A DNA stretch of 64,000 nt from Elusimicrobiota bacterium (GTDB taxonomy: Bacteria; Elusimicrobiota; Elusimicrobia; UBA1565; UBA9628). The stretch lies in the NCBI GenBank assembly GCA_016218575.1, contig JACRDN010000016.1, forward strand, positions 129,306-193,305, read 5' to 3'. Every line of letters starts with the position of its first letter. The stretch's first letter is position 1. This document shows, piece after piece, positions 19,529-57,862 of this stretch. The notes under the pieces were generated by a model. That model saw only the letters and a program-made list of their open reading frames with translations, was not told where the DNA came from and did no database searches. Both the position numbers and the translations under genes were made by a program.

Positions 19529-20621
19529 CCACGGTCCAGCGGAACTCCTTGACGCCATAATTGCCGGCGAGGTCTCCCGCGCTCAGGAGCAGGCGGTGCT
19601 CCCCAGGCGCCCGGGGGAATTGATACGGCCCCTGCCATTGAGTTCCCTCGAAGCTGAACCCCAGGTTGATCGAGAACCGTCTTTCCTCATAGTCCCCCCG
19701 GGACTGGCTGGGCCAGAAAAGGTCGCGCACGTAGACTTCCTCAGAATTACCCGGCAAGAGGTCGAATTTCCAGACCTGGCGCCATGATCCGTCATCCACC
19801 TTGAAGTGAAGAGAGTAAGGCGGTTCGTAGAATTTCCTGTGGTGGATGAGGTCTCGAACCTCAGCCACGATATGGTAATCCGCGGACACCTCGGCGGATT
19901 CGAGCCTTCGGCCATCCTGGACCAAGGCGATATCCACGATCTCCGGCGCCGAGACATCGAAGACGGGCTTCAGGAAAATGAGCGGGTTGAGAAGAAGACC
20001 GTTTTTATCCAAAATCGTCAAATGGATATGGTTGTATTTCTGATTGAACACTTCAAACTTGGAAGATGACAGCCACTCAACAACCGCACCTAAAATCGCC
20101 CCCTCTGGAATGGCCTTGTTTTCGCCAAAGGCCCGATAAATCTCATTAGGAATCGAATCGCCTTGGAGATGCCAATATCTCCACGTATAGCCCGCCTCGT
20201 CCTTGACCGCGACCCCGCAATATTTTCCGCAATCCCCTCCGCTCATCTCAACCACTTTCCCTCCCGCCGAGGCTCTGACCACGGCGCCGGCTTCGGCGCG
20301 AATGTCTATGCCCCTGTGAAAGTACGGACCTTTGCTATCATCATATTCTGGATAGTTTTGATAGGAGCCGAAAATATGCCCCAAGGTCTTCATTTCGACA
20401 GGCCATTCATACTGTTGCCTGGGCGCCGGATAAAGCAACGCTGGAATACGCTCCGGCGGGGTCAATTCCTTGTGGGCAACAGCCTGGGGACCGCTTTCCT
20501 CTTTGAGCCCCTGGAGAATAGCTCTTGCGCTGAAGCCTTTGTCGAAATCCACGGCCCCTGCCCCGGACGATGCCCGGGCACAGAGGCTAAGAACCAGCGC
20601 AACTAGGCCGTATGCCCTCAT
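19509..20621 (-). CDS. Secreted M23-family (LytM-like) metallopeptidase
   Basis: 370 aa from internal start MRAYGLVALVLSLCARASSGAG (signal peptide). M23 motifs HRGIDI and HIHL. The six-frame ORF extends to 20903. Convergent 20-nt overlap with the MIPS gene. Confidence 0.7.
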   Translation of the reverse strand: MRAYGLVALVLSLCARASSGAGAVDFDKGFSARAILQGLKEESGPQAVAHKELTPPERIPALLYPAPRQQYEWPVEMKTLGHIFGSYQNYPEYDDSKGPYFHRGIDIRAEAGAVVRASAGGKVVEMSGGDCGKYCGVAVKDEAGYTWRYWHLQGDSIPNEIYRAFGENKAIPEGAILGAVVEWLSSSKFEVFNQKYNHIHLTILDKNGLLLNPLIFLKPVFDVSAPEIVDIALVQDGRRLESAEVSADYHIVAEVRDLIHHRKFYEPPYSLHFKVDDGSWRQVWKFDLLPGNSEEVYVRDLFWPSQSRGDYEERRFSINLGFSFEGTQWQGPYQFPRAPGEHRLLLSAGDLAGNYGVKEFRWTVVKPGAR

Positions 20622-20707
20622 GGCTTTAGTGTAGCGGGGGGGCCCGGGGTTGAAAGGGCCGTTATACCCAGATCCAGCTGGGTCCAAAGACCCAAAATGA
20701 GAAAAAG

Positions 20708-20743
20708 TTATCCCCAAGACTTCGCGGCGAAGTTTTGGGGATA
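20708..20743. repeat. 36-bp near-perfect palindromic element, copy A
   Basis: TTATCCCCAAGACTTCGCGGCGAAGTTTTGGGGATA. Its two arms pair over 14 bp when G-U pairs are allowed. It ends 2 nt before the first candidate bamA start. A second copy lies at 34128-34163. Confidence 0.6.
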
Positions 20744-20745
20744 CC

Positions 20746-23208
20746 TTGGCCGCCTGGAGCGCTGTGGACGAAGAAGATAGACCGCCCATTGCGCATTTGA
20801 TATACTTCTTCGTCGTGTATTTTTGGCTGATAAGCGCCGTCTTGGCCGCCGCCGGAACGCCGAGCTGGGGGCAGGCTTTAGCGCCCTCTACCGGGACTTT
20901 CACCGGGGCCTCCTTGGACGCCCCCCAAGAGGCGGCGCCGACCCCTCAAGCCTCCACTCCCGGACCCTGGGTCATAGGCGAAATCGCCATATCCGGCAAC
21001 AAGAATTTGACATATAACGTCATCCGCTCCCATATCAAGGCACGCAAGGGCAGCCTCTACGACCGGGCCGAGCTCGACCATGACATCCAGACCCTTCTGG
21101 GCCTGGGAAGCTTCGAGCGCGTGGCGGCCGACATCTCGACGCTCGACAAGCCCGTCCCGGAACCCTACCGCAAAACGGCCGGCACGGACCGCCTCATCAA
21201 GCTTTCCTTGCTGGTCCAGGAAAAGCCCCTGGTGCGCAAGATCAAGTTCGAGGGCAACAAGAAGCTGTCCCGGGGCACCCTCATGGACATCGTGTCCATG
21301 AAGCAGAAGGACCCTTTCGACGGGCTCAAGCTCCAGGAAGACCAGGAGAAAATCCTCAAGAAATACCGGGAAAAGGGCTTTCTCGACGCCGCCGTCCAGT
21401 ACCGCGTGGACAAGGACACCGAGGCCCTCAAGGCCGACGTGACCTTCATCGTCCAGGAAGGCGCCAAGTCCCGCATCTTCTGGGTGGCGCTCAAGGGCGT
21501 CAAGTCCTTCAAGGAAAAGAAAATCCTCAAGCTCATGAAGAACCGCCGCAAAAAGGTCTTCGTGGAAGCCGACCTCAAGGAGGACTCAGGCAAGATAGAG
21601 ACCTTCTACCGCAACAACGGCTTTCTCGACGTGAGCGTGAGCTCCCCCTCGGTTCTCATGAGCGAGGACCAGACCCGCATCTACATAGACATCTCCATCG
21701 ACGAGGGCCGCTCCTACCGTTTCGGCGACACCAGCTTCTCGGGAAACCTCATCTACACCTCGACGGAACTTGCCAAGGCCGTGGAGTACAAGCGGGGCCG
21801 CATATTCAGCCAGGAGAAGTACGAGGCCACCATCAGGTCCATCCAGGAGCTCTACGCCGAGAAAGGCCGCCTGCGCGCCCACATCTCCCCTACCAAGACC
21901 CACAATCCGGCCACCGACCTCATGGACGTGCGCTACGACGTCTCCGAGGGGAACATCGTCTACATCGGCCACGTGGACCTGGAGGGCAACAAAGCGACGA
22001 AGAAATACGTGCTCAAGCGAGAGGTCGTGGTGAAATCCGGCCAGCCCTTCGCGGTCTCGCGCATACGCAAGAGCGTCGAGAAGCTGCGCAACCTCGGCTT
22101 CATAGACGACGTGGACCTCGACATCCAAAACACCCCCGACCCGGACAAGGTGGACGTGACCTTCGACGTGGTGGAGGGCAAACCCGGGGTTCTCACCGCG
22201 GGAGCGGCCTACTCCTCGGTGGACGGGCTCATCGGCACGCTCTCCCTGCAGCATTTGAACCTATTCGGCAGGGCCCAGAGGGCCTCGGTCCAGTGGTCCT
22301 TCGGGCGCAGGGTCCAGGACTACTCGATCAGCTGGACCACCCCCTGGATCTACAACAAACCCATGAGCCTGGGCTTCGACCTTTTCAACACCCGCCGTAT
22401 CAGCCCCTTCAGCTCGTCCTTGAGCGGCTTCGTGGAGAAGGACCGCGGGGGCACCATCCGGCTAGGCCCCCGCTTCGAGGAGGACAAATACCAGCTCAAC
22501 CTCTCATACACCTACTCGGAGATCACGATCACCAACGTGGAGGAGCAGTTCCGCGGCCAGCTGGGCGAGGGCACCAGCGTCTTTTCCTCGGCCGGGGTGG
22601 AATTCGCCCGCGACACCCGGGACAACATATGGGATCCCACCAAGGGCTCGCGCAACGCCGTCGGCGTGCAACTCTCCGGGGGGCCTTTCGGCGGCGACAT
22701 CCACCTCTTCAAGCCGTCCATCTCGAACTCGATCTACTATCACCTGTTCTCGATCGAGGACTACCCCTTCGTCCTGAGCTTTGGAAACCGCGCCGGCTAC
22801 GTCACCCAGTTCGGCGGGACCAAGGATGTCCCGGTTTTCAGCCGCTATTTCCTGGGAGGCCAGGACACTTTGCGCGGCTATGCCCCGACGGGAGAGGTGG
22901 GTTTCCCGTCAGGAGGCAAGGTTTTCGACGTCTTCAACATCGAGTTCGGCTTCCCCCTGGCCCGGGAGCGCAAGAAGACCATAGTCAAATTCGTCACCTT
23001 CTTCGACATGGGCACGGCCTGGGACAACGTGCGCGCCGTGCGCCTGCGCCTGGGAACCGGGGAGTCCGATCTCAAGACCAACGTGGGCTTCGGCATTCGC
23101 TTCACCACTCCCGCCTTCCCCATTCGCCTCGACTGGGGCTACGGCTTCAACCATAGGCCGGGTGAGAAACTGTATCAGATCAACTTCGGACTGGGGAACA
23201 TACTGTGA
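20746..23208 (+). CDS. bamA: Outer membrane protein assembly factor BamA (POTRA repeats + Omp85 beta-barrel)
   Basis: 820 aa. N-terminal hydrophobic signal region, five POTRA-like repeats and the C-terminal surface-antigen D15 barrel ending ...[11 protein letters not shown]. The first in-frame start is TTG 20746. Alternatives are GTG 20764 and TTG 20797, so the start is uncertain. Confidence 0.85.
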   Translation: MAAWSAVDEEDRPPIAHLIYFFVVYFWLISAVLAAAGTPSWGQALAPSTGTFTGASLDAPQEAAPTPQASTPGPWVIGEIAISGNKNLTYNVIRSHIKARKGSLYDRAELDHDIQTLLGLGSFERVAADISTLDKPVPEPYRKTAGTDRLIKLSLLVQEKPLVRKIKFEGNKKLSRGTLMDIVSMKQKDPFDGLKLQEDQEKILKKYREKGFLDAAVQYRVDKDTEALKADVTFIVQEGAKSRIFWVALKGVKSFKEKKILKLMKNRRKKVFVEADLKEDSGKIETFYRNNGFLDVSVSSPSVLMSEDQTRIYIDISIDEGRSYRFGDTSFSGNLIYTSTELAKAVEYKRGRIFSQEKYEATIRSIQELYAEKGRLRAHISPTKTHNPATDLMDVRYDVSEGNIVYIGHVDLEGNKATKKYVLKREVVVKSGQPFAVSRIRKSVEKLRNLGFIDDVDLDIQNTPDPDKVDVTFDVVEGKPGVLTAGAAYSSVDGLIGTLSLQHLNLFGRAQRASVQWSFGRRVQDYSISWTTPWIYNKPMSLGFDLFNTRRISPFSSSLSGFVEKDRGGTIRLGPRFEEDKYQLNLSYTYSEITITNVEEQFRGQLGEGTSVFSSAGVEFARDTRDNIWDPTKGSRNAVGVQLSGGPFGGDIHLFKPSISNSIYYHLFSIEDYPFVLSFGNRAGYVTQFGGTKDVPVFSRYFLGGQDTLRGYAPTGEVGFPSGGKVFDVFNIEFGFPLARERKKTIVKFVTFFDMGTAWDNVRAVRLRLGTGESDLKTNVGFGIRFTTPAFPIRLDWGYGFNHRPGEKLYQINFGLGNIL

Positions 23209-23933
23209 GAACGATACTTTGCCTCTGCCTTTGGGCCTTGGGCGCGGGGGCGCTCCCAAGCTCTGCCGTCGAGCTCGCCCTAGAGGAGAACCGCTCCCAG
23301 CGCGGCAACGTGGGCTACGTGGACATGCGCCAGCTCTTTAAGGCCTTCCCGGAGACTTTGGCCGCCAAGGAGAAATTCGAGCTCGCCCTGCGCCAAGGCG
23401 AGGAGCAGATCAACATACGCAAGATGGAAGTCCTGCGCCTGCGCCACGAGCTCTCCCAACAGAGGATCGAAAGGGAGTCCCTGGCCAAGGCCGCGGCATC
23501 CGCCCCGCCGCCTCCCAAGCCGGCGGAAAAACCAGCCCTGAACCTTCCCGGGGACAGCACGGAACAGGCCAAAGTCGAGCCGCCAAAGACGGAAGCCCCG
23601 CAGCCGGGGGCCCAGAGTGCCGCCAACGATGCGATAACGGCCATTGATTCAAAAATCGCTCAGAAAGCCAAAGACCTCGCTCAAAAAGAAAGCTCCCTCA
23701 AAGACTATCAGGCCTCCACCGAGAAGGCCCTCCTCCAGCGGGAAAAACGGGAATCCGACATCCTCCTGGGAAGGATCAACAAAGCCATCGAGGAAACGGC
23801 CCGGCAGGCCCAGGTGAGCATCGTAGTGGACAAGAGCGCGATCCTCTACGGCCACAAAGCCATGGATCTGACCGACAAAGTGCTCAAGCGCTTGAAGGAG
23901 GCGCCTCCGGAAGGAGTCGCTCCGGGAACCTAA
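23205..23933 (+). CDS. skp: Periplasmic chaperone Skp/OmpH with low-complexity insert
   Basis: 242 aa. Signal peptide and coiled-coil OmpH architecture, with a Pro/Ala/Glu-rich insert. GTG start overlaps the bamA stop (GTGA). The bamA-skp-lpxD gene order is canonical. Confidence 0.7.
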
Positions 23934-23937
23934 GGAA

Positions 23938-24999
23938 ATGGAACAAACCGATCTCCTGGCCGTCAACAAAACCGTCGGAGAAATCGCCGAGCTCGTGGGA
24001 GGCGAGGCCGCCGGGGATCCCTCCTTTCAAATCGCATCAGCCGCGGGCCTTTCGGAAGCCGGGCCTCAAGACATTTCCTTCCTGGGAAACCCAAAATACC
24101 TCCAAGAAGCCGCGGCCTCCCAAGCCGGCTGCCTGCTCCTTCCGGCGTCGAACCCTCAACTCGCCTGCGCGGCGAAGAACAGGATTTTCGTGGAGGACCC
24201 ACAGTACGCGTTCTCCCAAATTTTGAGCTTGATCGAGAGCCGGCGCCCCCGGCTTCCCGCCATGATAAGCCCCAAGGCGGAGCTTCACTATCAGGCCCGC
24301 CTGGGCCAGGGCGTGGCCGTGGGGCCCTTCACCATCATCGAGCGCGGGGCCGTGGTCGGGGAGGAAACCCGCATCGCCGCCCAATGCTACATCGGAGAAA
24401 ACACGCGCATCGGCCGCTCCTGCCGGATCTATCCCCAAGTGGTGATCCGCGAAAACTGCGTGATCGGGGACCGCGTGATCCTCCACTCCGGGACGGTGGT
24501 CGGCGCCGACGGCTTCGGGTTCTCCACGGACCGAAAAAGCGGCCGGCACCGCAAGATCCCCCAGCTCGGCAACGTGGTCATCGATAACGACGTAGAGCTC
24601 GGCGCCAACGTGACCGTGGACCGGGCCACGGTGGGCTCGACGGTGATCGGCGCCGGGAGCAAGATAGACAACCTGGTGCAGATCGCCCACAACGTAAAGA
24701 TCGGCAAGGGCTGTCTCATCGTGTCCCAGACCGGCATCGCGGGCTCGACCGAGCTCGGGGACCGGGTCATCTTGGCCGGCCAGGCAGGAGTGGCGGGGCA
24801 CCTGCGCTTGGGTGAAGGCGCCATCGTCACGGCCCAGAGCGGGATCATGGCCGATGTGCCCAAGGGGCAGACCGTCTTCGGCACGCCGGCCCGGCCCCAC
24901 CGAGAGGCCTTCAAGCTCCAAGTCCTCTACGGCAGGCTCCCCGAGCTTTTCGAGGCCGTCAAGAACATCAAGGAAAGGCTTGGCGTAGCGGAGAAATAA
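23938..24999 (+). CDS. lpxD: UDP-3-O-acylglucosamine N-acyltransferase LpxD
   Basis: 353 aa. N-terminal LpxD-specific domain followed by left-handed beta-helix hexapeptide repeats. AAGGA Shine-Dalgarno sequence. Confidence 0.9.
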
Positions 25000-25000
25000 A

Positions 25001-25885
25001 ATGGACGAACTCCAGAGCACGATCAGCCGGGACATCTCCTTGGAGGGCGTAGGCCTCCACACCGGAAACCCCTCCAAAATCACCTTCAAGCCCGCTCCGC
25101 CCAACACCGGCATCCGATTCTTCCGGGAGGACCTTGCCGGGACTCCCATGATCCCGGCGCGCCTGCGCCACGTCGTGGCCACGGTGCGCGGCACCAATTT
25201 GGGCCTCGGGGAGGCCAAGGTCCACACGGTCGAGCACGTCCTGTCGGCCTGCACCGGGGTCGGGGTGGACAACGTGGACGTCTGGGTCACCGCCAACGAG
25301 CCCCCCATCATGGACGGCTCCTCCTTGCCTTTCCTGGAGGCCCTGCTCAAGGCCGGCGTCAAGGCCTATCCCAACGCCCCCAAGCGCTGGCTGCGCCTGC
25401 CCGGGGAGGTGGCCTATTCGGACGGAGCCGCCAAGTACCGCGCCAAGCCCAGCGATCATTTCGAGCTCAAGGTCACCTTGATCCACGACCATCCCATGAT
25501 GCCCAAGATGACCCTTGAGCTTCGCCTTGACCGCCAATCCTACCTGCGCGACATCGCCCGCGCTCGCACCTTCTGCTTCGAGCACGAGGTGGCCTACTTG
25601 CGCTCGCAGGGGCTGGCCCAAGGGGGGTCTCTCGACAACGCCATCGTGATCGGCAAGGACCGCTTCCTCACCAATCCGGAGGGCCTGCGCTACAACGACG
25701 AGTTCGTGAGGCACAAGACCCTCGACCTCATAGGCGACCTCACCCTCATCGGGCGCTCGCTCTTCGAGATGTCCGTCGAGGCGGAATGCCTGGGCCACGC
25801 CCATAACATCGAATTCGCCAAGCGAATCGAAAAGGCCGCCGAAAAAATGCGCAAAAACAACACCGTTCTGGAGGCTCCCAAATGA
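25001..25885 (+). CDS. lpxC: UDP-3-O-acyl-N-acetylglucosamine deacetylase LpxC
   Basis: 294 aa. Typical N-terminus (GVGLHTGNPSKITFKPAPPNTGIRF) and zinc-site blocks (HTVEHVLSA, HKTLDLIGDL). Confidence 0.9.
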   Translation: MDELQSTISRDISLEGVGLHTGNPSKITFKPAPPNTGIRFFREDLAGTPMIPARLRHVVATVRGTNLGLGEAKVHTVEHVLSACTGVGVDNVDVWVTANEPPIMDGSSLPFLEALLKAGVKAYPNAPKRWLRLPGEVAYSDGAAKYRAKPSDHFELKVTLIHDHPMMPKMTLELRLDRQSYLRDIARARTFCFEHEVAYLRSQGLAQGGSLDNAIVIGKDRFLTNPEGLRYNDEFVRHKTLDLIGDLTLIGRSLFEMSVEAECLGHAHNIEFAKRIEKAAEKMRKNNTVLEAPK

Positions 25886-26349
25886 CCACGGAAACGATCT
25901 CATCCCAACCACCGGCCCTGCGCACCCTCGACGTCGCGGCCATCCGAAAGGCCATCCCCCACCGATACCCCTTCCTGCTGGTGGACAAGGTCGAGGTCCT
26001 CGAGGAGGACAAGAAGGCCGTGGGCACCAAGTGCGTGACCATCAACGAGCACTTCTTCCAGGGGCATTTCCCCGAGCACCCGGTGATGCCCGGGGTCCTC
26101 ATCCTCGAGGCCCTGGCCCAGACCGCCTGCGTCATGCTCCTTTCCAAGGGCAGCTACGAGAACAAGATCGCGTATTTCATGGGCATAGACGGAGCTAAGT
26201 TTCGCAGCCCAGTGCTGCCGGGCTGCGTGCTCAAGCTTAACGTGGAGGTCCTGCGCCTGGGGCGGGCGGGCAAATTCAAGGGCGAAGCCTTCGTGGACGG
26301 CAAGATGGCGGCCGAAGCCGAGATGTCCTTCGCCTTGGTGGACAAATAA
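25882..26349 (+). CDS. fabZ: 3-Hydroxyacyl-ACP dehydratase FabZ
   Basis: 155 aa. Hot-dog fold with the conserved block FFQGHFPEHPVMPGVLILEALAQ. ATGA overlap with lpxC. It is a separate gene, not fused to lpxC. Confidence 0.9.
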   Translation: MTTETISSQPPALRTLDVAAIRKAIPHRYPFLLVDKVEVLEEDKKAVGTKCVTINEHFFQGHFPEHPVMPGVLILEALAQTACVMLLSKGSYENKIAYFMGIDGAKFRSPVLPGCVLKLNVEVLRLGRAGKFKGEAFVDGKMAAEAEMSFALVDK

Positions 26350-26350
26350 C

Positions 26351-27151
26351 ATGGCCATCCACCCCACGGCCATAGTCCACCCGAGCGCCAATCTCGACCC
26401 CTCCGTGCAGGTCGGCCCCTACGCCGTCATCGGCGAGGACGTGGAGATCGGCGCCGGAAGCGTGGTGGGCCCGCACTCGGTCGTTGAATTCGCGTCGCTC
26501 GGCAAGGAAAACCGCCTTCACTCCGGCTGCTACGTGGGCACGGCCCCCCAGGATCTCAAATACGCCGGGGAGCGCACGCGCCTGGTGATGGGAGACGGCA
26601 ATGTCGTGCGCGAGTGCGTGACCTTGAACCGCGGCACCGCCGCCCACGGCGAGACCCGTATAGGAAGCCGATGCCTTTTCATGGCCTATTCCCACGTGGC
26701 CCATGATTGCGTGCTGGGAGACGGGGTCATCCTCGTCAACTCCTCGGCCGCGGCCGGGCACGTGGAGCTCGGGGACTACACCGTGGTGGGAGGCATGGCC
26801 GGCCTGCACCAGTACGCCAGGGCCGGGCGCTACTGCATGATCGGGGCGGGATCCATGGTGAGCAAGGACGTTCCCTCATTTTGCACCTGCCAGGGAGACC
26901 GCGCGACCTTGCGGGGGCTGAACTTGGTGGGCATGAGGCGGGCGGGGCTCGGCCGGGAAATCGTCCACGGGGTCAAGGAAGCCTATAAAACGCTGTTTTT
27001 GTCGGGGCTCTCGCTGGAAGAAGCCCTGAACCAGCTCAAGGCCTCTTCCATTACGGAAATTCTGGACATGGTCCGGTTCATCGAGACGGCCAAGCGCGGG
27101 ATTCTCCGCCCCGCCTCGGGCGCCGCGGCCGAGGAAGAGGTAAGCGTCTGA
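26351..27151 (+). CDS. lpxA: Acyl-ACP:UDP-GlcNAc O-acyltransferase LpxA
   Basis: 266 aa. Hexapeptide-repeat beta-helix (MAIHPTAIVHPSANLDPSVQVGPYAVIG...) plus the LpxA C-terminal helical domain. Confidence 0.9.
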   Translation: MAIHPTAIVHPSANLDPSVQVGPYAVIGEDVEIGAGSVVGPHSVVEFASLGKENRLHSGCYVGTAPQDLKYAGERTRLVMGDGNVVRECVTLNRGTAAHGETRIGSRCLFMAYSHVAHDCVLGDGVILVNSSAAAGHVELGDYTVVGGMAGLHQYARAGRYCMIGAGSMVSKDVPSFCTCQGDRATLRGLNLVGMRRAGLGREIVHGVKEAYKTLFLSGLSLEEALNQLKASSITEILDMVRFIETAKRGILRPASGAAAEEEVSV

Positions 27152-27978
27152 AGCTCGGGCTCATCGCTGGATCTGGGCGGTTTCCCATCCTGGTGGCGCG
27201 GGAGGCCAAGCGCCAAGGCCTGGAAGTGGTGGCCCTGGGCATCCCAGGGGTCACGGACAAGGCCCTGGAGGAGCTCGTCGGTGAAATACATTATTTCAAG
27301 CTCGGCCAAATCGACAAGCCGATCCAAACCTTGAAGACGGCCGGAGCCCAAAAGGCGGTCATGGCCGGGAAGATCCAGCACGTTTCGCTCTTCGGCGGCC
27401 TCCTCCCCGACATGCGCGCGGCCAAACTGCTGGCTCGCATTCCCGACAAGCGCACCGACACCATCTTGAAGGCCGTGGCCGATGAGTTCGCCAAGGACGG
27501 CATCGCGCTTCTTTCCTCGGCAGCCTACCTCTCGCACCTCCTGGTGCCGGAGGGCCCGCTCACCTCCCGCAAGCCCAACCCCTTGGAAGAGGCCGACATC
27601 CGCCTGGGCTGGAAAGCGGCCAAGGCCCTCGCGGGCTTCGACATCGGCCAAACCGTCGTGGTCCAGGGCGGGGCGGTGGTGGCCGTGGAGGCCATGGAGG
27701 GGACCGACGCCTGCGTGGAGCGGGCGAGCGCTTTGGCCCGCTCTTTCGGCAAGGACCCGCGCCTGACCGTGGTCAAGGTGGCCAAGCCCAAGCAGGACCT
27801 GCGCTTCGACATTCCCATCGTGGGCCTCGACTCCCTGAAAACTTTCGCCAAGGCCAACGTCTCGGCCCTGGCCTTGGAGGCCGGGTCCACCTTGATTTTC
27901 GACAAGGAGCGATTCCTCGAGGAGGCGGGCGGGCTCAAGCTCGCCATCGCGGGCCTCAAGGCCGAGGCTTTCTCATGA
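27148..27978 (+). CDS. lpxI: UDP-2,3-diacylglucosamine hydrolase LpxI (DUF1009), probably CTG-initiated
   Basis: DUF1009/LpxI located between lpxA and lpxB. The conserved LpxI N-terminus LKLGLIAGSGRFPILVAREAK is encoded in frame upstream of the first canonical start (GTG 27193, where the ORF track begins). No ATG, GTG or TTG precedes it. The first in-frame codon after the lpxA stop is CTG 27148, which overlaps the lpxA TGA (CTGA). The 5' end is uncertain; the ORF-track gene would be 27193-27978. Confidence 0.65.
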   Translation: MKLGLIAGSGRFPILVAREAKRQGLEVVALGIPGVTDKALEELVGEIHYFKLGQIDKPIQTLKTAGAQKAVMAGKIQHVSLFGGLLPDMRAAKLLARIPDKRTDTILKAVADEFAKDGIALLSSAAYLSHLLVPEGPLTSRKPNPLEEADIRLGWKAAKALAGFDIGQTVVVQGGAVVAVEAMEGTDACVERASALARSFGKDPRLTVVKVAKPKQDLRFDIPIVGLDSLKTFAKANVSALALEAGSTLIFDKERFLEEAGGLKLAIAGLKAEAFS

Positions 27979-29009
27979 GCTCCATCAAGGTCGGCGTGAT
28001 AGGGGCGGGGCGCATCGGGTCGCACCACGCGCGCATCCTCGGAAAGACCCCCGACGTCGAGCTCGTCGGGATATGCGACACCAATCTGTGGCGGGCCCAA
28101 TTCGTGGCTTGGCAAAGCAACTCCATGGCCGTGCGCGAGCATAAGGACCTCCTGGGGCGGGTGGACGCGGTCGTGATCGCGGTGCCGACCCCCATGCACC
28201 TCGAGGTAGGCCTGGCCGCCCTCGAAAAGGGAATCCATTGCCTCATAGAGAAGCCCCTGGCATCTTCCGTGGAGCAAGCCAGAAAGCTCTTGGACCTGGC
28301 GCAAGCCAAGAAGGTGGTGCTGCAGGTGGGGCACGTGGAGCGCTTCAACCCGGCCGTTCTCGAAGCCATCGGGCACATACGGAACCCGCGTTTCATCACC
28401 GTGGAGCGCCTAGGCCCCTACGACCCCCGCACGAGCCATATCGGGGTGGTGATGGACCTCATGATCCACGACTTAGACATCCTGCTCACCTTGGTGGGCT
28501 CCGAGATCGAGTCTTTGGAGGCGGTGGGAGCCCATGTCCTGGGCGAGCACGAGGACATCGCCAACGTGCGCGTGCGCTTCAAGACCGGCTGCATCGCGGA
28601 TTTGACCGCCAGCCGCATCTCCCTCGAGAAATGCCGCAAGCTCCGGATCTTCCAGCAGGACAGCTATATTTCGCTCGACTACGCCAACACCACCCTCAAG
28701 ATCTATAAGAAGAGGTCTCCAGTCATCAAGAGCCTCAAGGACGTGGAGATATTGAAGCCCAAGCTTTCCGCAGCCGAGCCATTGAGAAGCGAGCACCTTC
28801 ATTGGCTCGACTGCATCCGCCACAACCGCAAGCCCTGGCCGAGCGGGGAGCGGGGCATGGAGGCCTTGAAGCTCGCCCTCCAGATCGCCGACGAGCTCGA
28901 GCGCTACAAGGTAAGCCCCGACAAGCCCGCGCGGTCCATCATACCGAGCTGGGCGCAAGACCTGGGCAAGATCGCCAAGTCCGTGGGCAAGGACATCCTA
29001 AGCGATTGA
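27975..29009 (+). CDS. Gfo/Idh/MocA-family NAD-dependent oxidoreductase embedded in the lipid A operon (GnnA-like candidate)
   Basis: 344 aa. Rossmann N-terminus IKVGVIGAGRIGSHHARIL and family motif EKPLASSVEQARKLLDLA. ATGA overlap with lpxI and TTGA overlap with lpxB. Confidence 0.7.
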   Translation: MSSIKVGVIGAGRIGSHHARILGKTPDVELVGICDTNLWRAQFVAWQSNSMAVREHKDLLGRVDAVVIAVPTPMHLEVGLAALEKGIHCLIEKPLASSVEQARKLLDLAQAKKVVLQVGHVERFNPAVLEAIGHIRNPRFITVERLGPYDPRTSHIGVVMDLMIHDLDILLTLVGSEIESLEAVGAHVLGEHEDIANVRVRFKTGCIADLTASRISLEKCRKLRIFQQDSYISLDYANTTLKIYKKRSPVIKSLKDVEILKPKLSAAEPLRSEHLHWLDCIRHNRKPWPSGERGMEALKLALQIADELERYKVSPDKPARSIIPSWAQDLGKIAKSVGKDILSD

Positions 29010-30112
29010 GCCCCAAACGCGTCCTCGTCGTCGCCGGAGACCCCTCGGGAGACCTGCACGCCTCCCACCTGGTCCGGGCCTTGAAGCGCCGCGATCCCGC
29101 TCTTGAAGCCTCCGCCGTGGGCGGAGCGGCCCTCCAGGCGGCCGCGGATGAATTCCTGGAGGACTTGGCCTCTCGGGGAGTGACGGGATTCTGGGAGCCG
29201 GCGAGGCAGCTCCCCTTTCTGGCGAGCTTAAGGCGGCGCTTGAAGGCTTTCATGGCGAAAAAACGTCCCCACGCCCTAATCTGCGTCGACTACTACGGCT
29301 TCAACCGCCGGGTCCTGGGTCTGGCCCGTTCCTTGAATATACCGGCCTACTACTACATCAGCCCCCAGGTCTGGGCCAGCCGCCCGGGCCGGGTCCAAAC
29401 CCTCAAGGCTTTGGTGCGGCGGATGCTGGTGATTTTCCCTTTCGAGGAGGAGCTGTACCGAAAGGCGGGGGTGCCTTGCCTGTTCGTGGGACATCCGCTG
29501 CTGGATCTGATACCAGAACCTAGTCAAGCCGTCATGGAAGTGAATCGCCTCTTTAAAGTCGGCTTGCTTCCCGGAAGCCGTTCTTCCGAGGTCTCTAGGC
29601 ACCTTCCCGTTTTTCTCGACGCCTTCGACGAACTGCGCCGGCGCTTCCCGGCCTCCCGGGCCCTGGTATTCGCCAGCCGGGGGCTTCCCGATTCAGCCTA
29701 TGACTTGGGCAGGCGCGCTGGAGTGGAGCTGGTCAGGGAGTCAGGCTATGAGCTGCGCGCTGGCCTAGACATAGCGCTCACCTCATCAGGCACCGCGACT
29801 TTGGAGAACGCCCTCCTCGGCCTGCCCATGGTGGTGGTCTACAAGATGTCCTGGCCCACCTACGCCCTGGCGCGGCTGCTCGTGCGCGTTCCTTATATCG
29901 CCATGGCCAACCTTTTGGCCGCCAGAGCTTTGGTTCCCGAGCTGATCCAAGGCCAAGCCACCCCCCGGAACGTGGCGGACGCCGCGACCGAAATACTGAG
30001 CAGCCCAGGGCGCCGCGAAGAGATCCGCCGCGCCCTGTTGAGCCTGCGCGGACTCCTGGGCCAAGCGGGAGCGGCCGATAGGGCGGCCGAGAGCATCCTA
30101 GGCGACATCTGA
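29006..30112 (+). CDS. lpxB: Lipid-A-disaccharide synthase LpxB
   Basis: 368 aa from TTG 29006 (the six-frame ORF's 68-codon upstream extension overlaps the previous gene and is discounted). Conserved start KRVLVVAGDPSGDLHASHLVRAL and GT-B blocks. Confidence 0.8.
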   Translation: MSPKRVLVVAGDPSGDLHASHLVRALKRRDPALEASAVGGAALQAAADEFLEDLASRGVTGFWEPARQLPFLASLRRRLKAFMAKKRPHALICVDYYGFNRRVLGLARSLNIPAYYYISPQVWASRPGRVQTLKALVRRMLVIFPFEEELYRKAGVPCLFVGHPLLDLIPEPSQAVMEVNRLFKVGLLPGSRSSEVSRHLPVFLDAFDELRRRFPASRALVFASRGLPDSAYDLGRRAGVELVRESGYELRAGLDIALTSSGTATLENALLGLPMVVVYKMSWPTYALARLLVRVPYIAMANLLAARALVPELIQGQATPRNVADAATEILSSPGRREEIRRALLSLRGLLGQAGAADRAAESILGDI

Positions 30113-31881
30113 TGAGGGCTCTGCGCCGCTTCCTCAAGTACCTCAAGCCCTACCGCAGGCGCTGCGCCTACGCCACCCTCTCCATGTGCGCCGTGGCCCT
30201 CTTCAACGGCACCGCGGTTCTCCTGCTGAAGCCCATCGTGGACAAGGTTTTCATCGCCAAGGACTTCAAGATGCTGCGGCTGGCCGTGCTCGCCGTGCCT
30301 ATCCTCGTCGCCTTGAAGACCGCCGCCTCCTACGCCCAGAACTACCTGATGGGATGGCTCGGCCAGAAGGTGGCGCAGGAGATCCGAGAGGACCTCTTCC
30401 GCCATCTCCACGCCCTGCCCCTGGATTATTTCGCCCGGCACCAAAGCGGGGAGATCTTGGCGCGGGCGACCTCCGACCTCTCCGCCGTGCAGTGGGCCTT
30501 GACCTCGCTTCCGATCTACCTCATCCGGGACTCCATGACCGTGCTCGTTCTCTCGATTTCGCTCGCCTGCCTCGATCTCCACGTCGCCCTGCTCTCCCTT
30601 CTGGGCCTTCCCCTGGTAGTCTTCTTCTCCGTTATCCTGAGCAAAAAGATGCGGTCCGCCAGCCGCCAAAGCCAGGTCATCCTAGAGCACCTGACGCAGA
30701 GATTCCAGGAGAGCGTCCAGGGCATGGACATCATCAAAGCCTTTAATTACGAGGACGGACTCATCGAAAAATTCCAGGACGAGAATCACTCATTCTTCGT
30801 GCCTGTGATGCGCTTCTTGAGGGCCACGGCCCTGGCCGCGCCCCTCATGGAGCTGTGCGGGGGCGTCATCGCGGCCTTGATCTTGTATTTCGGAGGGTCG
30901 GAAGTCATCGAGGGCCGCATGACCCCGGGAGCCTTCTTCGCCTTCCTGGGGGCCTTTTTCGCGGCTTACGCCCCCATCAAGAACCTGGCCCGCTCCAATT
31001 CCGAGCTTCAAAGGGCCTTGGCCTCGGCCGAGAGAATTTTCCAGCTGCTCGATGAGCGCCCCGCCCTCCAGCACTCGGCCAAAACCGCGCCCTTCACCGA
31101 ACTCAAACAGGGAATCCGCTTCGAGAGCGTGAGCTTCCTCTACCCGGGGCGCCAGGAGCGGGCTTTGAGCGACGTCGACATTTTCCTGCCCAAAAACTCC
31201 TGGACGGTCTTGGTCGGCCCGAGCGGCTCGGGGAAAACCACCTTGGGAAGGCTCCTCCTCGGCCTGCAGGAGCCAGCGCGGGGGCGCATTCTGCTGGATG
31301 AGACGCCGCTATCCAGCCTAGACCCCAAGGCCCTTAGGGCCCGTATCGGCTTGGTGAGCCACAACACCCTCTTGTTCAACGCCACCGTCTTCGAGAACAT
31401 CGCCCTGGGACAGGGCGTGGTGACTTTGGGCGAAGTGGAAAGGGTCTGCCGCCTCACCGGAGCCCAGGAGTTCATCGAACGCCTGCCGGAGGGCTACCAG
31501 ACGCGCCTGGGCGAATCTGGGCTGGCGCTTTCCGCCGGGCAAAGGCAAAAAATCGGCCTGGCCAGAGCCCTCATCAAGAATCCGCCGATCCTGATCCTCG
31601 ACGAGGCCACATCCAATCTGGACGCCGCGAGCGAAGCCGAGATATTGGAGACCCTGGAGGCCCTGATCCCGGGACGCACCGCGGTCATGATCTCGCATAA
31701 TCTGCAGAATCTGAGCCGAGCCGACCGCGTTTTGGTCTTCAAGCAGGGCCGCCTGGTGGAGGCCGGGAGCCATGCCAGCCTGTTGGCGCTCGGCGGCTTC
31801 TACCGAAAGCTTTATGAATTCCAGAAGGCGGAGCCCACGGCCCTGCAGTCCCCTCAAGCCTCCGGAGCCGCCCATGCTTAG
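30112..31881 (+). CDS. msbA: Lipid A export ABC transporter MsbA (fused permease/ATPase)
   Basis: 589 aa. Six-TM exporter domain plus NBD with Walker A (GPSGSGKTT), signature (LSAGQRQKIGLARAL) and Walker B (ILILDEAT). Immediately downstream of lpxB; start and stop share one nucleotide. Confidence 0.8.
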   Translation: MRALRRFLKYLKPYRRRCAYATLSMCAVALFNGTAVLLLKPIVDKVFIAKDFKMLRLAVLAVPILVALKTAASYAQNYLMGWLGQKVAQEIREDLFRHLHALPLDYFARHQSGEILARATSDLSAVQWALTSLPIYLIRDSMTVLVLSISLACLDLHVALLSLLGLPLVVFFSVILSKKMRSASRQSQVILEHLTQRFQESVQGMDIIKAFNYEDGLIEKFQDENHSFFVPVMRFLRATALAAPLMELCGGVIAALILYFGGSEVIEGRMTPGAFFAFLGAFFAAYAPIKNLARSNSELQRALASAERIFQLLDERPALQHSAKTAPFTELKQGIRFESVSFLYPGRQERALSDVDIFLPKNSWTVLVGPSGSGKTTLGRLLLGLQEPARGRILLDETPLSSLDPKALRARIGLVSHNTLLFNATVFENIALGQGVVTLGEVERVCRLTGAQEFIERLPEGYQTRLGESGLALSAGQRQKIGLARALIKNPPILILDEATSNLDAASEAEILETLEALIPGRTAVMISHNLQNLSRADRVLVFKQGRLVEAGSHASLLALGGFYRKLYEFQKAEPTALQSPQASGAAHA

Positions 31882-32587
31882 GGTGTTCACAGCGCTCGCC
31901 GTGCTCATGACTTTCGCGGGCGGGCTTCTGCCGTTTTTCAAGGGCCTGCTCTCGCGCCAAGGGATCACTCATCTATTTTGCCTGCGCGCGGGAATTTTGC
32001 TCTCGGTATCGTTCACGGAAATCCTGCCGGAGGCCTGGGCCACCCACCATGCCTGGGGCGGCTGGGGAGCTCTCGGGGCCTTCGTTCTCCTCTTCGTCAT
32101 GGGAAATTTCGCCATGCTCGATTCCTGCCCGGAATATTTGGAGGAATGCCGCGTCCATTACCTGGGCTGGACGGCCCTCCTGGCCCTCTCGACTCACTCG
32201 TTCCTGGACGGCTTCAACCTCGCCGTGGCCTTCTCGGCCGGAGCCAAGGCCGGGCTCGCGGTGGGACTCACCTTGGCGCTGCACAAGCTCGCCGACGGGT
32301 TCACCTTGATCTCGCTTTTCGAAACCAGCGCCTACAGCCGAGCCCAAAGCCTCTTGGGCCTCTCCTGCGTGGCGGGCATGACGCCCTTGGGAGCGCTCTT
32401 GAGCTCCTGGGGATTCGCTGGACTTCCGCGTTCGGCCGAGGCGGGCCTCATGGGATTTGCCGCCGGCTCCTTCATATACATCGCCGCCGCCGACATCCTG
32501 CCCAGGCTCCACAAAAAGAGGGACAAGGCCGGACTCCTCTACTTTAGTCTCGGCATGTTCGGTATGGCGGCCTTGAAGATTCTGTAG
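31874..32587 (+). CDS. ZIP-family divalent metal (zinc) transporter
   Basis: 237 aa from ATG 31874 (overlaps the msbA stop; the ORF track starts at 31772). ZIP metal-binding motifs HSFLDGFNLAVAF and LHKLADGF. Confidence 0.7.
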   Translation: MLRVFTALAVLMTFAGGLLPFFKGLLSRQGITHLFCLRAGILLSVSFTEILPEAWATHHAWGGWGALGAFVLLFVMGNFAMLDSCPEYLEECRVHYLGWTALLALSTHSFLDGFNLAVAFSAGAKAGLAVGLTLALHKLADGFTLISLFETSAYSRAQSLLGLSCVAGMTPLGALLSSWGFAGLPRSAEAGLMGFAAGSFIYIAAADILPRLHKKRDKAGLLYFSLGMFGMAALKIL

Positions 32588-32622
32588 CATAATATCGCAG
32601 AGACGGCCCCGGCCGCGCGCCC

Positions 32623-34065
32623 ATGGAAAAAGAAGAGATTCTCAAGCAATTCTCCGCCTATTCTCCCCACGTCGACACGGCCATGCTCGCCAAGGCCTAC
32701 GACTATTCGACCAAGGCACACGCCAACCAGGAGCGAGCCTCCGGAGAGCACTACTTCGTGCATTGCGGGGCGGTGGCCCAGTCCCTCGTGGAATGGAAGA
32801 TGGACCTGCCCACCATCTGCGCCGGGCTTCTCCACGACGTCCTCGAGGACACCCCCGTCACCGCCGAAGCCCTGCGCGCGGAATTCGGAGAGGAGATCAC
32901 CAAAATGGTCGAGGGACTCACCAAGCTCGACCGCCTGCAGTTCTCCTCTCTGGACGACGCCCAGGCGGAGAACTGGCGCAAGATGCTGCTGGCCACCGCC
33001 CAGGACATCCGCGTCATCATGATCAAGCTGGCCGACCGCCTGCACAATATGAAGACCTTGGGGTATTTGAGCCGCGAGAAGCAGGAGCGCATCGCCCACG
33101 AGACGATCTCCCTCTACGCGCCCCTGGCCCACCGCCTCGGCATTTTCAGGCTCAAGGGCCAGCTCGAGGATTTGGCCTTCGCGGCCCTGCACCCCAAGGA
33201 GCACGAAAGCCTGAACGCCAAGGTCAACGCCCAGGTCGCGGCGCGAGAGCTCTCCCTCAGCAGGTTCAAGGAGGCCGTGGGAAAGGCCTTGGTGCCGAGC
33301 AACATACCCCATCGAATCGTCGCCCGCACCAAGAACCTCTACTCGATCTACCACAAGATGCTGCGCCAAGACAAGCCTTTCGAGGAGATACAGGACGCCC
33401 TCGGGGTGCGCATCATCACCGACACCATCGCCAACTGCTACGCCCTCCTGGGACTCGTGCACACCTATTTCAAGCCCGTGGCCGGGAGTTTCACGGACTA
33501 CATATCTCTTCCCAAGATGAACCTTTACCGAAGCCTCCACACCACGGTCATGGGGCCGGGCGGAGAGTTCGTGGAGATACAGATCCGCACCGAGGAGATG
33601 CACCGCACCGCCGAGTACGGAATCGCGGCTCACTGGCGCTACAAGCTGGGCGAGCACTCCAAGGACGTTCATCTCGAGGAGAAGCTCAATTGGCTTCGGC
33701 AATGGATCGAATGGCTGCAGGACTTGAAAAGCCCGCGGGAGTTCCTGGACAGCCTCAAGACCGACCTTGAGTTCAAACAGGTCTTCGTCTTCACTCCGGC
33801 CGGGGAGGTCAAGGTCCTGCCCTCCGGCGCCACCCCGCTCGATTTCGCTTTCGCCGTCCACACCGCCATCGGCGAGGCCTGCGTCGGGGCCCAGGTCAAC
33901 AATAAGATGGTCAAGCTCGACTACCAGCTCAAATCCGGCGACATCTGCCGCATCATCACCAAGAAGGGCTCAGTCCCCAAGAAAGATTGGCTCACCGTCG
34001 TCAAGACCGCGCGGGCCCGCTCCAAGATCCGCCACTACCTGCGCGAGCACGGTATCGTCGTTTAG
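32623..34065 (+). CDS. Short RelA/SpoT-homolog (HD hydrolase + (p)ppGpp synthetase + TGS, lacking C-terminal regulatory domains)
   Basis: 480 aa. HD domain (HYFVHCGAVAQ..LLHDVLEDT), synthetase domain (RTKNLYSIYHKM...GVRIITDT...EIQIRTEEMH) and TGS domain (VFVFTPAGEVKVLPSGATPLDFAFAVHT). The protein stops about 30 residues after the TGS domain. Confidence 0.75.
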   Translation: MEKEEILKQFSAYSPHVDTAMLAKAYDYSTKAHANQERASGEHYFVHCGAVAQSLVEWKMDLPTICAGLLHDVLEDTPVTAEALRAEFGEEITKMVEGLTKLDRLQFSSLDDAQAENWRKMLLATAQDIRVIMIKLADRLHNMKTLGYLSREKQERIAHETISLYAPLAHRLGIFRLKGQLEDLAFAALHPKEHESLNAKVNAQVAARELSLSRFKEAVGKALVPSNIPHRIVARTKNLYSIYHKMLRQDKPFEEIQDALGVRIITDTIANCYALLGLVHTYFKPVAGSFTDYISLPKMNLYRSLHTTVMGPGGEFVEIQIRTEEMHRTAEYGIAAHWRYKLGEHSKDVHLEEKLNWLRQWIEWLQDLKSPREFLDSLKTDLEFKQVFVFTPAGEVKVLPSGATPLDFAFAVHTAIGEACVGAQVNNKMVKLDYQLKSGDICRIITKKGSVPKKDWLTVVKTARARSKIRHYLREHGIVV

Positions 34066-34127
34066 ATGCCCTACTTCGCGCAAGCGGTCGCTAGGCGCAA
34101 GACGGTAATACAACCTGCTTAGACGAC

Positions 34128-34163
34128 TTATCCACCAGACTTCGCCACGAAGTTTTGTGGACA
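34128..34163. repeat. 36-bp palindromic element, copy B
   Basis: TTATCCACCAGACTTCGCCACGAAGTTTTGTGGACA. Same length as copy A; 7 substitutions, including a C-G to A-T double change that keeps the same stem pair. It sits between convergent genes (rel stop 34065; membrane-protein stop 34199). Confidence 0.6.
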
Positions 34164-34198
34164 ATTGGGGCTGCTTATAAGAAGGAGCCGCTCCAGCG

Positions 34199-35848
34199 TT
34201 AAAGTCCCGGCCGCGGGGCGGCGAAAGTCTGCTGCCTCCTCTTTTCGGCTTCCAAGAGCGGCAAGGGGATCTCTCCCAGACGCAGGGCCTCGTTGCGCGC
34301 CGCGTCGTCCTTGGGCAGCCAGTAGCGGTACTCGTGGGCTTTAAGCCATTCAGCCGGGACGAACTCGCGATCCACGAAAAGCAGGGCCCGCCAGTCCCAG
34401 TAGACCAAGGCCCAGCGCTCCCGGGGCATATAGAACAGATACCAGGGCCTAGGGAAGGACTTCCGTCCGCCGCCGGGATAGGCCCGCTCTGTCGGGAATC
34501 TCAGGTCCAGGTTGTAAGTAAGGACCCCGGTGAGCCCCTGCTTCTTTAAATACTCCTGCCAGGTATGCGAGTTCGAGATGGCCCGGGCCTGCTCCAGCAG
34601 TTGGGGATGGAAGATATAACGCCCGTCGCTGAATACCCGGTACCAAGGCCCGAGCTCCCAACCAAGATAGCCTCCCCATTCCCAGGGATTGTAGAGCCTG
34701 AGCCTCTCGATTACCGGCTTTTCCCGCGCCAAGAACCGGGCGGCCTCGACCGGGACATGCCTGTGGCTGAAGAAGGGCTCTGACCATGAGAAATGGGTCA
34801 GAGTCCATACAAGAAACGCCGCGTAGGCGAGAAAGATTTGTGGAAGTATCTTTAATCGCCATTTTTTTGAATGAAGCATGCCGTCGCCGAATTTTACGAT
34901 GAGAAAAGTCGAGGCGATCCCGGAAAATGCGGCCAGGCGCGCGTGAGCCAGGGCGCCCAAGCCCAGATAAAGCGCCGCTAGGGCGGGCCCCCAAGGAAGC
35001 CTCCGGCGCCGTTCTGTCTGCGAGACCGCATGCAAGACCAAACCCGCCGCGGCCGCGAGCAGGACCCAAAAGGGCCAATGCAGGGGGTTCTCAAAGGTCG
35101 TGGGATGCCATTCCTTTATATGCTGAGAGAGAAAGGCCCTCTCCCGCCAATGACGCAGAATCACGAGGTGAGGGCCCCAGCCATAAGGATTGAAAAAGCT
35201 GCCCGCCAGGGCAGCCAGGAAAAAAAATCCCAGTTCTCGCAGGCTATCCCAACGGCGTTGGAAGACTTCAGCCACGGCATACAGCAGGATCAGGACGAGC
35301 CCCAAAGCGAACCCGCCGTGCAGATTAGACCAAAGCGCAAAAGCCGGAAAAAACCAAAACCATGGGTGAGTGTTTCTCCTCTGCGCTTGCGGGAAGTGGC
35401 TTTCAAGCTCCCAAAGGAGCCACGAGAAGAGAAGAATGGAGAAAAGCTCCGGCCGAATGTCCGAGGCCGGGAGCAAAGCTGCGGACCATAGTACCAGGGC
35501 CGCTGCGCGGCCCTGGTAAGAAATGCCATAGGCCTTTAGGGTCTTGTGGAAGAAAAACCACGCTCCAAGAAGGATTCCGGCCTTGGCTAGCCACAGCCCC
35601 CACATTCCCCCGCAAGAACGGCAGAAAAAGAAGAGGATTTGGGAAAGCCACTCAAAATCCGCCCAGGACGCTTGCCCGGCGGTGAAGGAGAGAAAGTCCC
35701 GGGCCGGCCAAGCCCGGTGCTCCAGCATCCAGCGAGCGGCGGAAAAATGCCAGAAGATATCCGGGTTATAGGCGGGAACAATGAAGGCCGGAAGAGCCAG
35801 AAGTGTTGCGACGAGCCAGTATTTCTCCTCTTCTTCAAGAGGAGGCAA
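34199..35848 (-). CDS. Large polytopic membrane protein of unknown function (possible GT-C-like glycosyltransferase)
   Basis: 549 aa, about 10-12 TM helices with a conserved-looking N-terminal loop (NPDIFWHFSAARWMLEHRAWPARDF) and a soluble C-terminal domain. High GC3. TTG start immediately follows the rpmB stop. Confidence 0.6.
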   Translation of the reverse strand: MPPLEEEEKYWLVATLLALPAFIVPAYNPDIFWHFSAARWMLEHRAWPARDFLSFTAGQASWADFEWLSQILFFFCRSCGGMWGLWLAKAGILLGAWFFFHKTLKAYGISYQGRAAALVLWSAALLPASDIRPELFSILLFSWLLWELESHFPQAQRRNTHPWFWFFPAFALWSNLHGGFALGLVLILLYAVAEVFQRRWDSLRELGFFFLAALAGSFFNPYGWGPHLVILRHWRERAFLSQHIKEWHPTTFENPLHWPFWVLLAAAAGLVLHAVSQTERRRRLPWGPALAALYLGLGALAHARLAAFSGIASTFLIVKFGDGMLHSKKWRLKILPQIFLAYAAFLVWTLTHFSWSEPFFSHRHVPVEAARFLAREKPVIERLRLYNPWEWGGYLGWELGPWYRVFSDGRYIFHPQLLEQARAISNSHTWQEYLKKQGLTGVLTYNLDLRFPTERAYPGGGRKSFPRPWYLFYMPRERWALVYWDWRALLFVDREFVPAEWLKAHEYRYWLPKDDAARNEALRLGEIPLPLLEAEKRRQQTFAAPRPGL

Positions 35849-42980: not shown

Positions 42981-42984
42981 GAAT

Positions 42985-57263: not shown

Positions 57264-57854
57264 TTATTGCGCGATCGCCGTTATCGTCTTGAATATAAGC
57301 TTGAGGTCCACCCATAGATTGTGATTGTCCACGTATTCCAACCCCAGCCGTATTTTTTCCGGCTGTATCAGCGCTTTATAGGCCTTGTGCGGATCCGACT
57401 GCCCCTTGAGGATTTCGCCTTCATTGCGGAAGCGAATCGAGGAATAATCCGTGATCCCGGGCCGAACCGTCAACAGCCGGCGGGTCGATTCATCATACTC
57501 GGCGACTTCGGAAGGCACCTCTGGGCGCGGGCCCACGAAACTCATCTCTCCGACGAAAACGTTCCAAAACTGCGGCAGCTCATCGAATTTATACCGGCGC
57601 AGCAAAGCCCCGATGCGGGTGAGCCGCGGGTCGTCGGACGAAGTGGACGGGCCGCCGATTTTATCGGCGTTTTCCACCATCGTGCGGAACTTCAAGATGC
57701 GAAACGGCCTGCCGTTGAGCCCTATCCGCGAGCCTCGATAAAAAACGGACCCCGGCGACCCCAATTTTATCAGCAGCGCGACCGCAAAAAAAACGGGGGA
57801 AAGGATCGTCAACGCAGCCAAGGAAAAAAAGGCGTCAAAGAGTCGTTTAGACAC
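57264..57854 (-). CDS. Small phosphoglycosyl transferase (bacterial sugar transferase, PglC/WbaP C-terminal-domain type)
   Basis: 196 aa. A single re-entrant N-terminal helix (LFDAFFSLAALTILSPVFF) and the catalytic region (RPFRILKFRTM...DELPQFWNVFVGEMSFVGPRP). GTG start. Confidence 0.85.
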   Translation of the reverse strand: MSKRLFDAFFSLAALTILSPVFFAVALLIKLGSPGSVFYRGSRIGLNGRPFRILKFRTMVENADKIGGPSTSSDDPRLTRIGALLRRYKFDELPQFWNVFVGEMSFVGPRPEVPSEVAEYDESTRRLLTVRPGITDYSSIRFRNEGEILKGQSDPHKAYKALIQPEKIRLGLEYVDNHNLWVDLKLIFKTITAIAQ

Positions 57855-57862
57855 TTCGCGCG

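Follow-up and report, generated by a model that had tools for sequence, protein, structure and literature searches.

Repetitive extragenic palindromes (REPs) are palindromes preceded on their 5' side by a conserved GT(A/G)G head; they number more than 100 per genome, and their exact copies range from 37 to 427 per genome (PMC2817692). Their palindromy is preserved by complementary changes, they are often arranged as inverted doublets or bacterial interspersed mosaic elements (BIMEs) and flank a rayt gene, and homologs of the REP-associated tyrosine transposase (RAYT) were found only in and around the Gammaproteobacteria (PMC2817692). The present analysis concerns a 36-bp palindromic element that occurs as copies A and B in a 64,000-nt stretch of DNA (hereafter the window) from an Elusimicrobiota bacterium (assembly GCA_016218575.1, contig JACRDN010000016.1), one copy at each end of the bamA-lpx-msbA-rel operon. 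Like REPs and REP doublets forming hairpins (REPINs), the element is an imperfect palindrome outside genes that falls within the size range of about 20-40 nt (it has 36 bp, with 16 stem pairs in A and 14 in B, and each copy is in a spacer); it is unit-like and species-specific, and it is located at operon ends in either gene orientation. It differs from them in being represented by two singleton copies in 64 kb, in having neither a head nor a RAYT gene in these 64 kb, and in belonging to the phylum Elusimicrobia. Under the published criteria (PMC2817692) it does not qualify as a REP sensu stricto. Our tentative reading, to which we give somewhat less than an even chance, is that of a short, low-copy, lineage-specific palindromic DNA repeat that is REP-like in the broad sense. 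We do not regard it as a proven regulatory element, nor do we think that it is an operon-specific regulatory signal.

The starting point was an earlier note on this DNA, and both 36-mers that it had reported were read on the + strand at 20708-20743 (copy A) and 34128-34163 (copy B), 13,420 bp apart, each of them a singleton. As the note had claimed, they align position by position without gaps; 30 of the 36 columns are identical, and the 7 substitutions given there have to be corrected to 6 (positions 7, 9, 19, 20, 31, and 35). These substitutions are located in the loop (two of its three positions) and in the outer stem, and the inner stem is identical in A and B. As a pattern, the 36-bp element can be written TTATCCNCNAGACTTCGNNNCGAAGTYTTGNGGAYA. 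The 34-nt consensus proposed in the earlier note matched only copies A and B (plus the self-complement of A), with 0.00 matches expected from shuffled sequences, and the two copies are the sole inter-spacer repeat among the approximately 18 intergenic segments of the window. The likeness between A and B extends precisely as far as the palindrome does, and the flanks on comparison share nothing. A test for miniature inverted-repeat transposable elements (MITEs) or insertion sequence remnants detected no terminal inverted repeats with a target-site duplication, no duplicated flank, and no larger element around either copy. Likewise, two copies 13,420 bp apart do not form a regularly spaced array with 25-50 bp spacers as looked for in a test for CRISPR repeats. 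A shared small open reading frame (ORF) was rejected: copy A lies inside a 27-codon ORF, but a stop located two codons upstream of B closes the corresponding frame there.

The loci of both copies are each matched at 100% identity by independent Logan contigs (run SRR12113407; two 3.7-kb contigs), and because they recur there base for base an assembly artefact is excluded. Together with the shuffle expectation of 0.00 and the lack of adapter-like features, this leaves chance similarity or an artefact, in favor of which it can be said that only two copies are known, effectively refuted.

Both copies fold as hairpins, as had been proposed, and this was borne out by RNA as well as DNA folding. In copy A, 16 consecutive pairs are formed by positions 2-17 with positions 21-36 (one of them G.T) around a 3-nt loop, and the dyad symmetry spans the whole unit in either copy (all 16 pairs form in A and 14 of them in B). 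The folding energies were -23.9 kcal/mol (A) and -15.4 kcal/mol (B) as RNA, with z-scores of -7.5 and -6.5, and -13.8 and -8.0 kcal/mol as DNA. Thirteen stem pairs are invariant between the copies. The compensated pair described earlier is present at 7-31, where copy A has C-G and copy B has A-T; two further pairs, 3-35 (A.C) and 9-29 (C.T), have become uncompensated mispairs in copy B. The conclusion that had been drawn from the double substitution, namely selection on the hairpin, is not supported by these data. When six random substitutions were introduced into copy A by simulation, one or more compensated pairs arose in 16% of the trials, and in 5.7% when the trials were also required to have no more than two broken pairs; the observed covariation between A and B was reached by 265 of 500 shuffles. 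Palindromes can also gain symmetric changes by intrastrand template switching without selection (quasipalindrome correction). The double substitution thus fits a hairpin constraint and does not demonstrate one, and the evidence for selection is weak (p about 0.06-0.16), because two pairs are broken in B and because only two sequences give covariation no statistical power.

The search for further copies covered the window and several sequence collections. No third copy was found in the 64-kb window using the consensus and both half-site patterns with 3 mismatches each, the half-site patterns matching only the four arms of A and B, and a position-by-position score scan of the window with the 36-mer returned none above the level of shuffled sequence. 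The degenerate relative that had been suspected at 57850-57865 was refuted as a third copy: this segment is the reverse complement of TGATATAAT-cgcgcgaa-GTG, which is the -10 box and start codon of a sugar-transferase (Bac_transf) gene (57854, - strand), and it scores below the chance level in the 36-mer scan. The 18-base core AGACTTCGNNNCGAAGTTTTG had 16 matches in 185,579 species-representative genomes, for which the chance estimate is about 17, and 33 matches in the metagenomes of the Joint Genome Institute (JGI), and none of the 16 genome and 33 metagenome matches has the outer TTATCC/GGATA arms. The left-arm pattern had 36 matches in viral contigs, none of them palindromic, and a blastn search of a plasmid collection gave no match to the element. 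Logan assembles with k = 31. Because its short-read contigs pass unbroken through both copies (k = 31 assumed), the data suggest that no other copy has an exact 31-mer in common with A or B, and hence that there was no recent burst.

A core match recurring in Verrucomicrobia (Udaeobacter-like) was observed as GCGCA-AGACTTCGTC(A/G)CGAAGTTTTG-TGCGATC..CCATGG in eight loci (L007, L015, L017, L025, L026, L032, L040, and L048). It was rejected as a member of the family; its reverse strand reads by inspection as the start of an ORF (ATGGGTGATCGC...), so that the match is probably coding. It is unrelated to the element and has the core by chance.

For comparison with relatives, loci fetched via LpxB homologs (L050-L056) were used, and approximately 81 kb of orthologous sequence was scanned. 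LpxB of the window is 100% identical to MBI5630373.1 from an Elusimicrobia MAG. No close relative has been sequenced, as judged from the closest other LpxB being only 67% identical to that of the window. The bamA-lpx-rel operon is conserved across these Elusimicrobia, and the approximately 81 kb of orthologous loci contained neither a copy of the element nor comparable hairpins. In L054, bamA follows directly after ino1 with a 66-bp spacer, at the place where the window has the M23-like peptidase gene inserted. At the other end of the operon, rel and the convergent gene encoding a protein of 543-553 aa overlap or are 9 bp apart in L052 and L054, and the window has a spacer of 133 bp here, although rel and the convergent protein end at homologous positions in the window and in the relatives. 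On this comparison both copies are located in DNA specific to the lineage, because the relatives are without the M23-like insertion and without the rel spacer.

Copy A was previously described as abutting the bamA start, which has to be revised, since the start lies 71 nt downstream of the copy, behind a TATACT -10 box that is kept in relatives. Measured from its centre, copy A is about 88 bp away from the start of bamA and about 105 bp away from that of the M23-like gene. The bamA start is best placed at GTG 20815 because the putative promoter and the signal peptide are conserved in relatives: the -10 arrangement reads TATACT-N9-GTG in L054 (1471-1493) and TGTATACT-N9-GTG in L050 (about 445-467), and the BamA signal peptides of the window and the relatives align from this GTG. 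The longest bamA ORF opens at TTG 20746 and comprises the additional positions 20746-20814. The M23-like gene is likewise predicted to start at 20621, behind TACACT at 20633-20628. Because copy A is upstream of both of these predicted divergent promoters, which are of the leaderless type, it is probably part of neither mRNA.

TATA(A/C)T hexamers, often with a TG extension, were observed 6-10 nt before the starts of operon-leading genes in the window, with sites at 12408, 20801, and 42988 on the + strand and at 57868, 39102, and 20633 on the - strand. This suggests that leaderless mRNAs are widespread in these Elusimicrobia, the bamA arrangement being common to three lineages. In the M23-like ORF the Pfam match begins at residue 101; the gene is annotated by NCBI with 257 aa (HY921_05720, MBI5630364.1) and was called with 370 aa in the Logan data. 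Only two distant homologs of the protein (38-43% identity) were found among 5.8 billion proteins.

According to the REP-like reading, the 36-bp unit would have been copied as a whole at two places in this lineage, either into intergenic DNA that was newly formed or along with it. Copying of a unit is favored over the independent evolution of binding sites because 30 of 36 positions are shared and because the likeness ends at the palindrome ends. The dyad symmetry would be kept because the element is made or recognized as a single-strand hairpin or as a cruciform, or alternatively by self-correction of the palindrome through template switching. A copy-and-paste origin and a hairpin-based maintenance are thus what we infer from the observed copies, and the confinement of variation to the loop and the outer stem counts in favor of this reading, as do the palindromy over the full length, the location of both copies in lineage-specific spacers, the lack of copies in the approximately 81 kb from relatives, and the singularity of A and B as an inter-spacer repeat of the window. 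Effects on flanking genes would be secondary: copy B could provide the rel transcript, the convergent transcript, or both with a 3'-end hairpin, and copy A, which precedes the two divergent promoters, probably remains silent. Dispersed repeats are typically indifferent to gene orientation, and both copies are extragenic, A in a divergent and B in a convergent spacer. The classification as a REP-like element, one of several offered in the earlier note, remains the most economical.

Several observations weigh against it. Only two copies are known, the core AGACTTCGNNNCGAAGTTTTG yielded no further family member from the genomes and JGI metagenomes, and if the collections include the rest of the source metagenome-assembled genome (MAG) the family would be very small, unlike REPs. 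There is no GT(A/G)G head, the 5' ends being TTAT on the + strand and GTAT or TTGT on the - strand, all of them stem bases. No doublets of the REPIN or BIME kind are formed by these singletons, the Pfam scans found no Y1/RAYT or other transposase in the 64 kb, and the uninterrupted Logan contigs point away from a recent burst. Finally, the copies sit at adjacent operon boundaries, for which the chance is only about 1 in 6: two random picks among 12 hand-picked spacers of at least 60 bp are adjacent in 11 of 66 cases (0.17). Taken alone, the bracketing of one operon by A and B is not significant.

The element might instead act as an RNA hairpin on + strand transcripts, in which case B would be a 3'-end stabilizer or a U-tract-independent terminator of the operon mRNA, and A would stop or stabilize read-through from the ino1 operon before the bamA promoter. 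The two copies are indeed oriented as the surrounding + strand transcription, and both retain the G.U pair 11-27, with the result that copy A folds better as RNA on the + strand (-23.9 kcal/mol) than on the - strand (-20.7 kcal/mol); yet two copies will have the same orientation by coincidence in 50% of cases, common descent accounts for the G.T that they share, and copy B folds equally on both strands (-15.4 kcal/mol each). The 3' region of rel shows a modest folding bias (z = -2.6 on the + strand vs. +0.1 on the - strand), and the convergent overlap of ino1 with the M23-like gene leaves no terminator between ino1 and copy A. Copy B resembles intrinsic terminators and 3'-end stabilizing hairpins in that it folds stably between convergent genes, at 62 nt past the rel stop codon, but there is no U-tract on either strand, copy A is not at a 3' end, and sequence identity between A and B is unexpected for terminators. 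The earlier suggestion of a terminator module fails on this point: a scan for intrinsic terminators reported neither copy, the flanks being CCTTGG and ATTGGG with no T-run, although a hairpin with a T-run does exist in the genome (e.g., at 135-162, - strand). A small structured RNA, also suggested before, has no counterpart in Rfam, as the Rfam 15 covariance models gave 0 matches at the gathering score and only noise at E-values of 1 or more. Relatives manage without a hairpin, with rel and the convergent gene overlapping, and an RNA role common to both copies is disfavored because copy A, being upstream of both predicted promoters, is probably untranscribed. On balance we consider such an RNA module unlikely. 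The element could also be the duplex-DNA site of a sequence-specific protein, with one such site at either end of the bamA-lpx-msbA-rel operon serving as a boundary, a roadblock, a topological barrier, or a regulator site, a possibility that we rate as rather doubtful. It would agree with the bracketing of exactly one 13.3-kb operon, with the position of copy A between divergent promoters, which fits an upstream regulator site, and with the failure to find any other copy in the window or the collections. On the other hand, it is rare for operators to agree at 30 of 36 bases, with non-contact positions among them, or to have palindromic arms as long as 16 bp; the bracketing has a chance expectation of about 0.17, copy B stands between convergent 3' ends with nothing to regulate at initiation, and no gene for a DNA-binding protein was recognized by the Pfam scans in the 64 kb. 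The operator of a global regulator, as the earlier note had it, is made unlikely by the position of copy B and by the relatives, as the site is missing in front of bamA in all of them; in L050 and L054 the orthologous promoter within the same operon retains the -10-N9-GTG arrangement and shows no palindrome.

In a variant of the protein-site explanation the outer arms are inverted DnaA boxes bound by DnaA. The DnaA-box consensus is TTATCCACA. The outer 9 bp of three arms (TTATCCCCA, TTATCCACC, and TTGTCCACA) match it at 8 of 9 positions and those of the fourth arm (GTATCCCCA) at 7 of 9, and the boxes are inverted. Unlike DnaA-box regions, the element has only two boxes per site with no cluster and no origin context, and binding by DnaA leaves the conserved inner palindrome unexplained. 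DnaA-box-like 9-mers are not enriched in the window (6 vs. 3.6 expected; 6 were reached by 16 of 100 shuffles), and neither dnaA nor dnaN was detected among the Pfam-scanned ORFs. An origin of replication or a DnaA cluster was rejected, as the 9-mers are not enriched and there is no turn in the GC skew. The boldest form of the explanation, in which the palindromes are the sole genomic copies and serve as dedicated boundary sites for a protein (possibly DnaA) that insulates this operon of outer-membrane biogenesis and stringent response from the cell cycle or DNA topology, or couples its transcription to them, is to our minds very improbable. We know of no operon-bracketing protein sites of this kind described in bacteria. 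The controlling inverted repeat of chaperone expression (CIRCE), which is bound by HrcA, has in common with the element an inverted repeat whose outer arms measure 9 bp, and in the case of copy A a location near promoters; CIRCE, however, is conserved across phyla upstream of defined regulons, whereas the element is absent from the orthologous promoters of relatives and has one copy in a convergent spacer. MITEs and Correia-type elements are alike in being short non-coding repeats in intergenic DNA, but with 36 bp the element is much smaller, and it has no terminal inverted repeats apart from its body and no target-site duplication.

The finding is genuine but modest. The earlier observation was right in essence and wrong in several details, and selection on the structure is unproven. 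If the element is a dispersed repeat, it would represent a REP-like palindromic family in the Elusimicrobia, a phylum outside the lineages of the described REP/RAYT systems, and its value to the study of repeats and the annotation of MAGs would be minor. If there are strictly two sites that bracket bamA-lpx-msbA-rel, they would indicate that an essential envelope operon can be delimited in a manner not known so far, which the evidence does not favor. By-products of the analysis are the corrected bamA start and the evidence for leaderless-type promoters in the lineage. The coordinates of the features are listed in Table 1.

Table 1. Positions of the palindromic copies and of surrounding features in the window.
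Feature	Position	Strand	Remarks
Copy A	20708..20743	+	TTATCCCCAAGACTTCGCGGCGAAGTTTTGGGGATA; 16 stem pairs (one G.T), 3-nt loop
Copy B	34128..34163	+	TTATCCACCAGACTTCGCCACGAAGTTTTGTGGACA; 14 of 16 pairs, mispairs at 3-35 and 9-29
M23-like peptidase gene	19509..20621	-	370 aa, signal peptide; lineage-specific insertion between ino1 and bamA
Divergent spacer, 193 bp	20622..20814		Between M23-like peptidase gene (-) and bamA (+); copy A mid-spacer
TACACT, -10-like hexamer	20628..20633	-	6 nt before ATG (20621) of M23-like gene
Putative bamA promoter TAGACC-17-TATACT with TG extension	20778..20806	+	8 nt before GTG 20815; leaderless-type
Operon bracketed by A and B	20815..34065	+	From Pfam scans and synteny in relatives
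Convergent spacer, 133 bp, containing copy B	34066..34198		Lineage-specific DNA; copy B 62 nt after rel stop codon
Convergent 549-aa gene, no Pfam family	34199..35848	-	Orthologs of 543-553 aa at the same position in relatives
Segment that is not a copy	57850..57871	-	TGATATAAT (-10 box), 8 nt, GTG start of Bac_transf gene

The tightly packed operon between the copies (approximately 13.3 kb) comprises, in this order, bamA, skp/ompH, lpxD, lpxC, fabZ, lpxA, lpxI, a Gfo/Idh/MocA oxidoreductase gene, lpxB, an msbA-like ABC transporter gene, a ZIP transporter gene, and a short rel (480 aa). The oxidoreductase gene between lpxI and lpxB (27975-29009, + strand) was observed at the same position in L050, L054, L053, and L056; we presume a resemblance to the GnnA-type 3-oxidation of UDP-GlcNAc for lipid A containing GlcN3N. 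The short Rel (HD, RelA_SpoT, and TGS domains) also ends the operon in the relatives whose sequence reaches that end (L050, L051, L052, and L054). Beyond the convergent 549-aa gene the window continues with rpmB, recG, and metH. Directly upstream of the locus, the region 15416-19528 (+ strand) encodes a further Gfo/Idh/MocA oxidoreductase, a CDP-alcohol phosphatidyltransferase, and myo-inositol-1-phosphate synthase, which suggests a cluster for inositol phospholipid synthesis.

Three other inverted repeats were observed in the window. At 42939-42983 a 14-bp inverted repeat (TTGAATTCGGTGAC-N17-GTCACCGAATTGAA) includes the stop codon of metH and reaches almost to the TATACT box belonging to a coaD-like gene (ATG 43004); either a terminator or an operator is conceivable. 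Another inverted repeat, perfect over 15 bp (GCCGTGTCCTGGACC-N5-GGTCCAGGACACGGC), is located at 13295-13329 inside a stretch that by inspection is readable as a + strand ORF, and the - strand ORFs picked there are doubtful. The perfect 28-bp palindrome at 135-162 (ATCCGGCTCCCCTGCAGGGGAGCCGGAT) is followed on the - strand by TTTTAAAT and looks like a canonical terminator.

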